Part shown: positions 2,518 to 35,725 of the stretch, in pieces
How positions within the stretch are numbered: position 1 is the first letter of the stretch
How the letters are laid out: every line of letters starts with the position of its first letter
DNA from: Escherichia phage vB_EcoM_Kelasse
DNA length: 64,000 nucleotides
Sequence record: MW749001.1
Direction: 5' to 3' (one strand)
Notes under the pieces: model-generated
What the model saw: only the letters and a program-made list of their open reading frames with translations
The model's database searches: none
What the model was told of the DNA's origin: nothing
Translations under genes and position numbers: made by a program

Positions 2518-2556
2518 ATATGTTAATAATACCACAGTTTGAACTTCTTGTAAACA
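2518..2556 (-). promoter_or_regulatory. T4-type early (sigma70) promoter
   Basis: Minus-strand GTTTACA (-35), 17-bp spacer, TATTAT-like -10. Confidence 0.5.
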
Positions 2557-2575
2557 ACTTTGTGAAATTATTTTA
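2549..2575. repeat. 27-bp dispersed repeat (copy 1)
   Basis: tgtaaacaactttgtgaaattatttta, identical to 35251..35277; first 19 bp also at 15321. Confidence 0.85.
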
Positions 2576-2625
2576 GGGAACGATAAGAAGGGAACGATAG
2601 CTTAGAATGGTAATATACAGAATGC

Positions 2626-2650
2626 GAGAAAGAAAGGCCCAGAGGGCCCG
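2626..2650 (-). terminator. intrinsic terminator
   Basis: GGGCCC-UCU-GGGCC hairpin followed by UUUCUUUCU on the minus strand, right after the redoxin-like gene. Confidence 0.5.
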
Positions 2651-2652
2651 TC

Positions 2653-3105
2653 TTAGTCTTCTATGATATCTCTATCATATCCAAGTGAAATGAGAGTTTC
2701 TTTGAAGTGTTTAATGTTCTTTTGTCTAGAATCATTGATGAAAATGACTGGATAACGAATATTAAGAGATGTGAATCCAGCGCGTTTAGCAAGAGATACA
2801 ATCAGTGGACGATCATACTCAATCTTACCATTATTTGTAAGAACTTTATAAAAAGTAAAAGGAGCATTGAGCTCCTTTAGAAGTTTTGTAACTGATTGAC
2901 ATCCAGGACAACGACCTACTTCATCTGGAATTCCATAGACTTCAATCTTATTCTTTAAGTTCGAGTTTTGTTCCACGAGAAATAATTCCTTGGTAAGCCC
3001 AATAAGGAGGATTAACAGAATCCTCACCAGAGTTTTCTTCAGGAAAATAAACCTGGATAACGAAGCCGGATTCATCAAAGGTGAAATAAGTAGTAGGCAG
3101 TTCAC
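2653..3105 (-). CDS. glutaredoxin/NrdH-like redoxin (N-terminal extent uncertain)
   Basis: C-terminal ~95 aa carry a CPGC redox motif in a thioredoxin-fold-like context (EVYGIPDEVGRCPGCQSV...); the long ATG-initiated frame overlaps the upstream ORF, so the real start may be a GTG near 2966; position matches T4 nrdH next to nrdG. Confidence 0.55.
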   Translation of the reverse strand: MNCLLLISPLMNPASLSRFIFLKKTLVRILLILLIGLTKELFLVEQNSNLKNKIEVYGIPDEVGRCPGCQSVTKLLKELNAPFTFYKVLTNNGKIEYDRPLIVSLAKRAGFTSLNIRYPVIFINDSRQKNIKHFKETLISLGYDRDIIED

Positions 3106-3259
3106 CTAACAAATCGGCACGAGCGTTGATTTCTTCGAGGTCTTGTTCACGTCCAGCCCAGAAGCTTGGGTTCAGACTACATTCATAGAAATAATAGTCA
3201 TTACCGAACATATCAAAACCATTCCAACTCTCTACTACATACCGCTCAAAACTAATCAT
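2948..3259 (-). CDS. hypothetical early protein (103 aa)
   Basis: ORF; acidic/aromatic composition. Confidence 0.4.
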   Translation of the reverse strand: MISFERYVVESWNGFDMFGNDYYFYECSLNPSFWAGREQDLEEINARADLLGELPTTYFTFDESGFVIQVYFPEENSGEDSVNPPYWAYQGIISRGTKLELKE

Positions 3260-3261
3260 AA

Positions 3262-3477
3262 TTAAGCCTTTTTATCAAGAACCGCATTCAGCTTGTTAGT
3301 AATTTTATCCAGACGCTCATTGAACTCACTAGAAGATAAGCCCTTTTCTGGAGAAATTAAACTAATCACGAAAAATATAGCAATAAAAGGAATAAGAAAA
3401 ATAGCTCCAACTGCCATAAACAGAAAGAACGTTACAGTTGTAAGAAAATCAGCTAAACCTTTACGAAATTTATACAT
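3262..3477 (-). CDS. small membrane protein (71 aa)
   Basis: Long hydrophobic segment FLFMAVGAIFLIPFIAIFFVISLI predicts a transmembrane helix. Confidence 0.45.
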   Translation of the reverse strand: MYKFRKGLADFLTTVTFFLFMAVGAIFLIPFIAIFFVISLISPEKGLSSSEFNERLDKITNKLNAVLDKKA

Positions 3478-3592
3478 ATTTTACCCTTAATTGATTAACC
3501 AAGCATTGATAAGCACTAAACTATATTGCGAATAAAATTCTGGACCAAAATGAAAAATCATATCATTTATAGTATCCATAATGTAATTCAAT

Positions 3593-4063
3593 TTAATCAT
3601 GTGTCCACACCCCATCGGTATTTGACCAAAGTCGCTGATTATCTGATCCTCGCCACAGCTTTTTAGTCGGAAGATTTTTCTCATACTTCCCATCAATAAT
3701 AACATCAACATATTTAAGCATTTCTAGTTGTTTAATATCTTCAAACTTATATCCTGTCCACAACCAAATGCTTTTATTGGGATAAAGATTTTTAATAGTT
3801 TGAACCACAGAGTGAATCACGTCTCTGTTATCAGGATAAAGAGGGTCACCTCCGGTTATAGTTAATCCTTCTATATAATCATTATTCAAACATTCAATCA
3901 ATTGTTCTAGTGTTTCACCAGTGAATGGAATACCATTTCTAGCATTCCATGTTGATTTATTATAACACCCTTCGCATTTATGCAAACAACCTGTAACGAA
4001 AAGAACGACCCTGCAACCAGGGCCATTAACAAAATCGCAAGGATAAAATCTATCATAATTCAT
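3593..4063 (-). CDS. nrdG: anaerobic ribonucleotide reductase activating protein (radical SAM)
   Basis: 156-aa ORF with CxxxCxxC-type cysteine cluster (GCLHKCEGC); ATGA-coupled immediately downstream of nrdD. Confidence 0.9.
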   Translation of the reverse strand: MNYDRFYPCDFVNGPGCRVVLFVTGCLHKCEGCYNKSTWNARNGIPFTGETLEQLIECLNNDYIEGLTITGGDPLYPDNRDVIHSVVQTIKNLYPNKSIWLWTGYKFEDIKQLEMLKYVDVIIDGKYEKNLPTKKLWRGSDNQRLWSNTDGVWTHD

Positions 4064-34751: not shown

Positions 34752-34899
34752 TTAAACCAATTAAAAATGCTACTACAAGTGAAAAAACATTTTCTGCTGT
34801 AGTCAATAATCCGCATATAAATCCAACAAACATTGAAAAACTAAAAGCGGAAGCAGAAATTGCAATAGCAACATTTCGAATTAATTCACAACGTTTCAT
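34714..34899 (-). CDS. small membrane protein (61 aa)
   Basis: Hydrophobic over most of its length; downstream of promoter-like element. Confidence 0.35.
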   Translation of the reverse strand: MKRCELIRNVAIAISASAFSFSMFVGFICGLLTTAENVFSLVVAFLIGLIAIVMDKISKGE

Positions 34900-34906
34900 T
34901 TTATTC

Positions 34907-34930
34907 TCCTCGGTAGTTGATAGGGTAATA
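34907..34930. repeat. 24-bp direct repeat flanking ipI (copy 1)
   Basis: ttgatagggtaatagtatcactac, identical to 35217..35240. Confidence 0.85.
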
Positions 34931-34948
34931 GTATCACTACCCTATCTA
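34912..34948 (-). promoter_or_regulatory. T4-type early promoter downstream of ipI
   Basis: Minus-strand GTTTACT ... TACTAT. Confidence 0.5.
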
Positions 34949-34957
34949 AAAGTAAAC

Positions 34958-35191
34958 TTATTTTTTACGAAAAATTGATTTATATTTATCAGCCCATTTC
35001 TCAATGACTTTTGCCGGGCCATAGATAACAAAGTAATCGCCAAACTCTTCACCACCGAGTTGACCGAAATCATCTAATGCATCACGAAGAACTCCATGAG
35101 GCATTTCACCCATTTTATCTTTCTTGCCAGTGTAAATAAACTCAACTTTTACATCAGCAGTTTCAGCAATAAATTCTTGATACGTTTTCAT
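34958..35191 (-). CDS. ipI: internal protein I
   Basis: MKTYQEFIAE CTS followed by VKVEFIYTGKKDKMGEMPHGVLRDALDDFGQLGGEEFGDYFVIYGPAKV..., recognised as T4 IPI; start placed at internal Met of the ORF-track frame. Confidence 0.85.
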   Translation of the reverse strand: MKTYQEFIAETADVKVEFIYTGKKDKMGEMPHGVLRDALDDFGQLGGEEFGDYFVIYGPAKVIEKWADKYKSIFRKK

Positions 35192-35216
35192 TTTGTTCTC
35201 CAATTTCACATTTGTT

Positions 35217-35240
35217 TTGATAGGGTAATAGTATCACTAC
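35217..35240. repeat. 24-bp direct repeat flanking ipI (copy 2)
   Basis: ttgatagggtaatagtatcactac, identical to 34907..34930. Confidence 0.85.
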
Positions 35241-35258
35241 TAAAACCCCATGTAAACA
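35222..35258 (-). promoter_or_regulatory. T4-type early promoter upstream of ipI
   Basis: Minus-strand GTTTACA ... TACTAT, then GGAGAA and the ipI ATG. Confidence 0.6.
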
Positions 35259-35277
35259 ACTTTGTGAAATTATTTTA
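35251..35277. repeat. 27-bp dispersed repeat (copy 2)
   Basis: tgtaaacaactttgtgaaattatttta, identical to 2549..2575. Confidence 0.85.
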
Positions 35278-35725
35278 AATCATCTGCCCAATCAAGTTTA
35301 AGAGGCTCTTTATATTCACGATCTAATACGACCGGAATTTGTACATCACCGCTAAATGATAAGGGTCCAACATTATAAGACAATGTTATATGCGGTGTGT
35401 AATCATCAAAATCATGTGTAGCACCTAGTGACCGCGCATACATGTGTCGACAGCGCAGATATTCAGAATCTAGTACAAGTACAAGAGTAGATCCATCTTG
35501 TGTTTTCCATACTTCTAAATGTCCAGAAGAAGCTACTTCAAAACTTCCGCTTGATGGAACATACGGAACATTTACTCTCGAATAACATATAGTCGAATGA
35601 ATTTTTTCTCTAGGAACTGGATTAGGAACACGTAAAGAGCGCTGGAGTTCTTCCAGCGCATCAAGTGTTAATTCTGAAAACTTAGCTGCTACATAAAGAC
35701 CCGTTGAAAAGTCTTTAAATTCCAT
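35270..35725 (-). CDS. 57B: 2H-phosphoesterase family protein (T4 57B/Acb1-like)
   Basis: Two H-x-T/S motifs (HSTICY, HITLSY) typical of 2H phosphoesterases; 151 aa; position between ipI and 57A. Confidence 0.75.

Follow-up and report, generated by a model that had tools for sequence, protein, structure and literature searches.

Probable T4-type early promoters, some joined to stem-loops, in the early region of Escherichia phage vB_EcoM_Kelasse

We examined a dispersed family of short minus-strand elements within a 64,000-nucleotide stretch (the window) of the genome of Escherichia phage vB_EcoM_Kelasse (sequence record MW749001.1). Judged from their sequence, the elements are in all likelihood sigma-70-dependent early promoters of the phage T4 type, some of them with hairpins, that may act as occasional substrates of recombination. 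They are already known, both as T4 early promoters and as the published promoter-early stem-loop (PeSL) cassettes; a preliminary description of this DNA had named them correctly as T4-type early promoters resembling mobile regulatory cassettes, which is the published PeSL model (PMC2839356). All of them lie within the early nrdC-mobD-tk-e-IP region (IP, internal protein). Hundreds of Tequatrovirus genomes matched at 95–98% identity when 2–12, 14–24 and 28–38 kb of the window were searched by megablast, and T4 (NC_000866) is collinear with the window over its positions 46–90 kb at 92–97% identity, broken by insertions and deletions (indels); by these matches the window belongs to a Tequatrovirus other than T4. 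The genome has 35% G+C, and the sign of the GC skew flips at ~38 kb, in keeping with the switch of coding there from the minus-strand early genes to plus-strand late genes, which past this point include those of the baseplate. The window was compared with seven close relatives (T4, AndreasVesalius and five IMG/VR contigs) and with a wider set of 40 tk-anchored loci of related phages, whose Tk identity runs from 100% down to 47%.

The strict motif GTTTACW-N17-TAYTAT matched nine times in the window, all on the minus strand, against 0.03 matches expected from dinucleotide shuffles. With one base relaxed in the -10 there are 13 strong intergenic elements, named here by the position of the G of GTTTAC (2555, 10652, 13624, 15327, 18271, 19083, 23279, 26384, 30125, 30516, 30853, 34957 and 35257). 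A position weight matrix (PWM) trained on 197 distinct promoters from related phages gave 16 minus-strand matches scoring above 20, located between 2.1 and 35.3 kb, where the maximum for shuffles was 7.1; the 13 strong elements scored 20–53, and the matrix added 15056 (a degenerate copy), 6945 (in the 3' end of 49.1) and 2110 (in coding sequence). The same matrix found no match on the plus strand of the 64-kb window, none past 35.3 kb and none in the late baseplate module. An earlier matrix built from the 13 window promoters was dropped as overfitted, having found back its training set alone. All 117 occurrences of the strict motif in the 40 tk-anchored loci were on the gene strand. The preliminary description had counted at least eleven such minus-strand elements, and the PWM search it proposed upheld that count. 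Chance similarity in an AT-rich genome would find some favor in the G+C content and in a generic sigma-70 consensus scan, the matches of which were no commoner than in shuffles (90 vs 85 and 91 vs 76); it was rejected as scarcely credible, given the excess of strict matches, PWM scores far beyond the random maximum and on one strand, the 117:0 strand split, and the exact repeats that are found in cassettes only.

Exact direct repeats of at least 20 bp form four pairs in the 64 kb, 21–27 bp long, every one inside the cassettes (Table 1); shuffles of the window contained 0–7 repeated 16-mers, a rough guide to chance, and the repeats stand far above it. Among the identical blocks given in the preliminary description, those at 2549/35251 (27 bp) and 13580/30809 (24 bp) were confirmed, while a block placed at 34907/35217 is a real 24-bp repeat that had slipped by 10 bases, its correct start being 34917. 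This last repeat was said to flank ipI. It does flank ORF (open reading frame) 35191..34958 at the ipI locus, but that ORF (PHROG 8111) is not the orthologue of T4 ipI, with the product of which it has in common only the N-terminal targeting peptide MKTYQEFIAE. The cassettes had also been called near-identical, which does not hold: pairwise identity over 80 nt averages 47% (range 34–70%), and outside the hexamers it is 39% vs 27% for background. A search of Rfam returned no family for these elements, tRNAs alone reaching threshold.

The elements consist of a -35 of GTTTAC(A/T), a 17-bp spacer and a -10 of TA(C/T)(T/A)AT, with an extended -10 TGn directly before the -10 in 12 of the 13. Many have an A/T-rich upstream (UP) block, typically TTTCACAAAGTT, and several have (A/T)nTTTCACAAAGTT; at promoters 30125 and 30516 what lies upstream of the -35 is merely a stop codon and coding sequence. 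The start region is conserved as ACAACTATCAA / ACAACTATCAACTAC or TACCCTATCAA, and each start region is followed by a Shine-Dalgarno (SD) sequence of GGAG type and then the ATG of an early gene (pin, nrdC.4, nrdC.8, nrdC.10, mobD.2, mobD.5, regB, denV, e.6, e.7, e.8, trna.4 and an IP gene). Each promoter would serve one short early gene, or a group of such genes, on the minus strand. Twelve of the elements have T4 orthologues at the same sites, for example T4 62797 (regB) and 73939 (ipI), and promoter 6945 is conserved in T4 at genome position 47452. Dispersed copies that flank variable ORFs, which Arbiol et al. (2010) liken to integron cassettes (PMC2839356), might suggest autonomous mobile elements of a miniature inverted-repeat transposable element (MITE) or integron-cassette kind, served by a dedicated recombinase. 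We rejected this transposon-like reading as highly improbable: the elements have no bounding terminal inverted repeats or target-site duplications and no associated recombinase, every copy stands at a gene start and on the transcribed strand, 12 of them are in orthologous T4 positions, and promoter function explains where they are.

Indel boundaries that distinguish the window from its relatives fall within cassettes at 15285/15361/15009, 26385/26319, 30469/30087, 30487 and 34937/34957. The ORF of 66 amino acids (aa) at 15257..15057 lies between promoter 15327 and the degenerate promoter 15056, and T4 and three IMG/VR contigs lack it, a fourth contig having other sequence in its place; the IP gene at 26667..26386 is removed by a deletion running from its start codon to the -35 of the denV promoter (26385); two relatives have ~35 bp in place of segment 30469–30087, which holds e.7 and the e.6 promoter; and a 234-bp insertion falls within promoter 30516, at its -10/leader. 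Replacement of the IP-locus gene extends from its targeting-peptide codons (35155–35159) to the -10/leader of promoter 34957 (34937/34957), T4 homology ending at 34937, inside that promoter. The flanked genes thus vary among close relatives, some of which lack or have replaced e.7, the 66-aa ORF, the IP gene at 26386–26667 or the gene of the IP locus. Re-assortment was seen as well: 13 cassette types were scored upstream of at least two gene families (the N-terminal similarity threshold makes a few of these artefactual), at least two cassette types precede 17 of 37 multi-member gene families, and in a clear case the spacer AAGCATAAAGCTTTATGG precedes four different ORFs. The shared blocks of 20–27 bp would be long enough to serve occasionally as substrates of phage homologous recombination, by which promoters, leaders and the genes behind them would be re-assorted among relatives, as the PeSL model proposes; cassette recombination would be one route among several and not the main source of indels here.

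Stem-loops accompany the promoters in two arrangements. In the first, a promoter lies directly behind a terminator whose loop is usually UUCG, as at two of the 13–16 promoters (pairs 15376–15357/15327–15298 and 19116–19099/19083–19054); the preliminary description had given the first pair and spoken of several, which overstates the number. Both hairpins have the GC-rich stem, C-G closing pair, UUCG loop and U-run of an intrinsic terminator, with 8 pairs (6 of them GC) and then TTTTTT at 15376–15357, and 7 pairs and then TTTTTT at 19116–19099. Among relatives, a terminator-like hairpin was found no more than 75 nt upstream in 38 of 224 promoters (17%), and UUCG was the loop in about half of these hairpins; a control offset gave 9 of 224. 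An upstream intrinsic terminator would insulate the promoter from upstream transcription, in what is a minority arrangement.

In the second and commoner arrangement, present at about half of the promoters, the stem-loop is embedded in the promoter itself, with its 5' arm in the -35/-10 spacer and its 3' arm in the leader, sometimes covering the SD. A helix of -12 kcal/mol or lower is predicted at 6 of the 13 window promoters. Cognate spacer-leader duplexes in the window average -11.8 kcal/mol vs -7.7 for non-cognate pairings (permutation p < 5e-5), and shuffled spacers gave a mean of -7.2 +/- 0.6 kcal/mol. When window and relatives were taken together, a bulge-free helix was found in 104 of 202 distinct promoters vs 43.8 +/- 3.9 for non-cognate pairings, an excess that persists in 68 cluster representatives, and cognate pairing exceeded non-cognate in 9 of 10 orthologue groups (Wilcoxon p = 0.002). 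At the regB promoter, cognate duplexes of the orthologues average -16.9 vs -9.9 kcal/mol for non-cognate ones (p < 2e-5), and 11 of 13 sequence types, which come from different genera, fold the helix at -14 to -23 kcal/mol with compensatory changes in the arms (for example CTCTAGTTG/CAACTAGAG, CTCTTTATG/CATAAAGAG, CTGTAAG/CTTACAG and CATTTG/CAAATG). Covariation at regB was judged by per-sequence folds and by cognate vs non-cognate duplex energies; RNAalifold run on a MAFFT alignment of the regB promoters recovered only 5 pairs, since the arms are out of register from one lineage to another. The mobD.2 helix is wholly Watson-Crick in T4, and both of the differences in the window are G.U pairs. 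The 3' arm covers the SD at regB, nrdC.8, denV and, in part, mobD.5 (three or four of the 13).

The start of the promoter would lie between the two arms, and since the promoter's own transcription would begin there, the helix is predicted to form only in read-through RNA arriving from upstream. In such RNA it would prevent translation, and possibly also the cleavage of GGAG by RegB; alternatively it may serve as an attenuator or as a stability element. Expression of each gene would in that case depend mainly on its own immediate-early promoter and not on read-through RNA. We suggest, with considerable doubt that it will prove both correct and new, that about half of Tevenvirinae early promoters are self-insulating switches in which the spacer has been selected for complementarity to the leader/SD, so that read-through RNA would fold and silence the gene and RNA started at the promoter would stay open. 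If so, spacer-leader complementarity would be a general, covariation-supported rule for immediate-early-only expression; such a switch is on record for the late promoters of e, 49, soc and I-TevI, and the PeSL papers give only an undefined "stem-loop". Confirmation would explain how densely packed early genes stay under their own promoters, and the design would be available to phage engineers as a portable "insulated promoter". Recombination-prone sites could also be marked by these inverted repeats.

Inverted repeats of this sort might instead act as DNA, by forming a cruciform or single-stranded hairpin, as a target of recombination or of endonuclease VII, or as a protein-binding palindrome. 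The repeat does enclose the -10 and start site, where DNA melts, most helices leave the SD uncovered, and Arbiol et al. (2010) speculated that the PeSL stem is a target for recombination proteins (PMC2839356). The arms, however, are wholly different between promoters and yet covary, which argues against a sequence-specific protein site. Mismatches inside the helices (16 G.T, 5 A.C, 3 other) favor sense-strand RNA by their excess of G.T over A.C, two mismatches that would be equally bad in DNA, and T4 precedents for action as RNA are well established at e, 49, soc and I-TevI (PMC3014915). We regard action at the DNA level as quite unlikely.

Several observations weigh against reading the elements as early promoters with functional hairpins that recombine on occasion. 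Promoter activity is here deduced from consensus and from orthology to T4. The bases that replaced segment 30469–30087 are unrelated ones, and a clean promoter-by-promoter hybrid, sought at this e.7 deletion (30469/30087), was not found. Breakpoints in the seven relatives occurred at 5 of 12 promoter junctions vs 24 of 75 others (Fisher p = 0.36), and among junctions with a spacer of at least 40 bp at 5 of 11 vs 11 of 23; the ad hoc gene caller missed the junction of promoter 15327, which holds breakpoints, and its inclusion gives ~6 of 13 and the same conclusion. About 6 of ~30 indel events touch a cassette. As to the hairpins, the excess of G.T over A.C rests on 21 mismatches; an SD-like motif is overlapped by 25 of 89 embedded helices in relatives, so that SD sequestration cannot be their whole function; and the embedded helices have no U-tract and are therefore not classical terminators.

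Regulatory convergence alone, that is, selection for a strong promoter consensus and leader with no special role in recombination, would account for several of these observations: for the low mean identity of the cassettes inside and outside the hexamers, for the non-significant enrichment of breakpoints at junctions, for the placing of most indels at promoter-less junctions or as homing-endonuclease/intron insertions, and for an event at 30469–30087 that was no clean homologous exchange. Convergence does not so readily explain identical 24–27-bp blocks that span positions without known promoter constraint (the 3' end of the spacer, and the leader), the several indel boundaries within cassettes and the bracketing of the 66-aa ORF by two promoter elements, the occurrence of one cassette type before unrelated genes in different phages, or the demonstration in RB49/phi1 of mini-circles formed via such elements (PMC2839356). 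We consider convergence alone a real but lesser possibility and retain the reading as early promoters that are plausibly occasional recombination substrates, not demonstrated drivers. The preliminary description had proposed that the cassettes drive gene shuffling, which is partly borne out here: boundaries in cassettes and re-assortment were seen, and the comparison of cassette-flanked genes across relatives did reveal variable genes, but the junction enrichment is non-significant, and most indel events leave cassettes untouched.

Other indels and repeats were noted beside these. Relatives carry insertions of 0.7–1.0 kb, not in the window, inside nrdD, at the nrdD/49 junction and at nrdC.9-nrdC.10 (coordinates 5339–5342, 5817–5874 and 14015–14050), and the mobD region (16392–18438) is replaced in relatives. 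This nrdD/49/nrdC.9/mobD pattern fits presence-absence polymorphism of introns or homing endonucleases, unrelated to the cassettes. Five minus-strand genes (25428–25901, 26386–26667, 31020–31583, 31702–32175 and 34958–35191) start with the IP capsid-targeting peptide (MKTYQEFI.E-like), and their common 5' coding sequence constitutes direct-repeat family D2. The PHROG matches are to internal virion/head proteins for three of the genes and to PHROG 2280 (unknown function) for two, and none of the five is the orthologue of T4 IpI, which indicates that the injected internal proteins of this phage differ from those of T4 and are more numerous. At the IP loci, the codons for the targeting peptide are one of the recombination boundaries. 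The tRNA cluster (32930–33944, minus strand) has 11 tRNA genes (Arg, His, Asn, Tyr, Met/Ile-CAT, Thr, Ser, Pro, Gly, Leu and Gln) vs 8 in T4, contains no segB homing-endonuclease gene in the window, and is distinguished among relatives by several indels.

Further hairpins were also observed. Strong C(UUCG)G hairpins with 6-bp GC-rich stems lie at 29454–29469 and 1673–1688 (minus strand) with no early promoter behind them, that at 29469–29454 being just upstream of the SD sequence of the next gene; UUCG hairpins thus appear to be a general intergenic RNA feature of the phage and not specific to cassettes. Three minus-strand terminator hairpins (30993–31011, 31671–31694 and 32226–32249) have a common 3' stem and U-run (GGGGCTTTTTGGTAT / GGGGCTTTTTAG / AGGGCTTTTTGGCAT), and over 40 nt two of the hairpins reach 90% identity. 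Between the hairpins stand two IP-like genes, with a late-type TATAAATA promoter ahead of at least one. This whole 1.2-kb block is missing from T4, where the rnaC end is the single terminator; it is an inserted module flanked by terminators, much as others are flanked by promoters. In some distant relatives (loci L035, ~6872, and L024, ~18823), an SD-sequestering hairpin lies wholly in the leader, e.g., GGTCCTC...GAGGACC before denV; such a hairpin would form in promoter-proximal RNA as well, a geometry unlike that of the spacer-leader helices.

Table 1. Predicted early promoters, terminators and exact repeats in the window, with the early region that holds them. Coordinates are window positions; SD, Shine-Dalgarno sequence.
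Feature	Position	Strand	Remarks
Early region	1 to ~38 kb	-	nrdG/nrdD, 49, pin, nrdC cluster, mobD cluster, rI, tk, vs, regB, denV, IP genes, e, e.1-e.8, tRNA cluster, IP locus, 57B, 57A, 1, 3, 2, 4
Promoter match, GTTTACA-N17-TATAAT	2081..2110	-	Inside coding sequence; cassette type conserved in relatives; least certain member
Early promoter core, GTTTACA to TATTAT	2526..2555	-	Upstream of 60-aa ORF (ATG 2495, PHROG 2283)
UP/-35 block of promoter 2555	2549-2575	-	Identical over 27 bp to 35251-35277
Promoter match, GTTTACA-N17-TATAAT	6916..6945	-	In 3' end of 49.1, upstream of pin (ATG 6875)
Early promoter	10623..10652	-	Upstream of nrdC.4 (ATG 10594)
Early promoter	13595..13624	-	Upstream of nrdC.8 (ATG 13566); spacer CCGTTCCTCTG pairs with leader CGGAGGAACAG, SD included; -20 kcal/mol
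Leader block of nrdC.8 promoter	13580-13603	-	Identical over 24 bp to 30809-30832
Degenerate promoter, GTATAC-N18-TATAGT	15027..15056	-	Upstream of nrdC.10; GATAGGA/TCCTATC inverted repeat around -10
Early promoter, -10 TATACT	15298..15327	-	Heads 66-aa ORF (15257..15057, PHROG 6200)
UUCG intrinsic terminator, AGGGGGCC-UUCG-GGCUCCCU + U-run	15357..15376	-	End of nrdC.11, 30 nt upstream of promoter 15327
Early promoter	18242..18271	-	Upstream of mobD.2; helix AGTTGGCAAGG/CTTGTCAACT encloses -10
Early promoter	19054..19083	-	Upstream of mobD.5 (ATG 19025)
UUCG intrinsic terminator, AGUCUCC-UUCG-GGAGACU + U6	19099..19116	-	16 nt upstream of promoter 19083
regB early promoter	23250..23279	-	Spacer TTTTCCTCTTGACTG pairs with leader CAGTTAAGAGGAGAA, covering SD; -22 kcal/mol
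denV early promoter	26355..26384	-	Spacer TTCCTCCAAG pairs with leader CTTGGAGGAA, SD included
Early promoter	30096..30125	-	Upstream of e.6
Early promoter	30487..30516	-	Upstream of e.7; helix ACAGGCTCAT/ATGAGCCTGT encloses -10
Early promoter	30824..30853	-	Upstream of e.8
Early promoter	34928..34957	-	Upstream of trna.4; helix GATAGGGTA/TACCCTATC encloses -10
Right copy of 24-bp direct repeat	34917-34940	-	In promoter 34957
Early promoter	35228..35257	-	Upstream of IP-locus gene (35191..34958, 77 aa, PHROG 8111, internal virion protein)
Left copy of 24-bp direct repeat	35217-35240	-	In promoter 35257
Exact repeat, 21 bp	2547/15319		
Exact repeat, 27 bp	2549/35251		
Exact repeat, 24 bp	13580/30809		
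Exact repeat, 24 bp	34917/35217		Flanks ORF 35191..34958 at ipI locus

These results have little bearing on annotation, the elements being textbook T4 early promoters and cassette shuffling being published; their practical yield is a clean inventory of the early transcription units of this phage. They add a caution, in that breakpoint statistics in the region lend the "mobile cassette" role little weight, and a quantitative argument from covariation that the stem-loop usually lies within the promoter and would be possible in read-through RNA alone.

The early promoters of bacteriophage T4 have reportedly been treated by Liebig and Rueger in 1989 and by Wilkens and Rueger in 1996, and we found no genome-wide map of T4 start sites in the literature. 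Intrinsic terminators with a C(UUCG)G tetraloop are said, after Tuerk et al. in 1988, to be abundant in T4 intergenic regions; the hairpins at 15376–15357 and 19116–19099 are ordinary members of that class, with no difference from it. T4 early promoters are of the "UP/-35/TGn/-10" type with extra conserved regions (Hinton 2010, PMC2988021), and have immediate-early activity with host sigma-70 RNA polymerase and stimulation by Alt (PMC2988021, PMC3014915). The window elements are like them in UP, -35, 17-bp spacer, TGn, -10 and +1 region, and are on the same strand and in the same positions at 12 sites, including the regB promoter. There is no essential difference; the IP-locus gene and the 66-aa ORF differ downstream, and copy 15056 is degenerate.

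PeSLs were defined in RB49/phi1 by Arbiol et al. (2010), where the stem-loops are mostly between the -35 and -10 or overlap the -10, and where promoter and terminator activity and mini-circles were shown experimentally (PMC2839356). Comeau et al. (2014) extended PeSLs to PST/T4 with the consensus TTTACW-N17-TAYWAT (PMC4122927), which matches the window elements. Repoila et al. (1994), as relayed by Arbiol et al. (PMC2839356), had PeSL-like elements arising from T4 early promoters at variable IP loci, and the IP locus of the window is likewise flanked by such elements. Here, too, an early promoter is joined to a stable stem-loop in a hyperplastic early region, beside variable ORFs. The differences are that RB49 stems contain GGGG/CCCC, whereas those of the window are AT-richer and without it; that enrichment of breakpoints at window cassettes is non-significant; and that the PST/T4 stem-loop lies just upstream of the promoter according to Comeau et al., an arrangement seen at 2 of 13–16 window promoters, about half having it embedded instead. 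As a nuance to that account, the usual T4-type stem-loop appears from our comparisons to be embedded in the promoter, supported by covariation and often involving the SD.

A further parallel is with the SD-sequestering hairpins of T4 genes e, 49, soc and I-TevI, which have a promoter inside (PMC3014915). The helices of regB, nrdC.8 and denV are like these in having the 5' arm upstream of the start and the 3' arm over the SD, a geometry that would leave long read-through RNA closed and promoter-proximal RNA open. In the T4 hairpins the internal promoter is a late gp55 promoter (TATAAATA), whereas in the window it is of early sigma-70 type, so that the predicted effect is "early only" and not "late only"; most embedded helices of the window type, by contrast with the T4 hairpins, stop short of the SD. 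The window helices would work like the e/49/soc/I-TevI family without being members of it.

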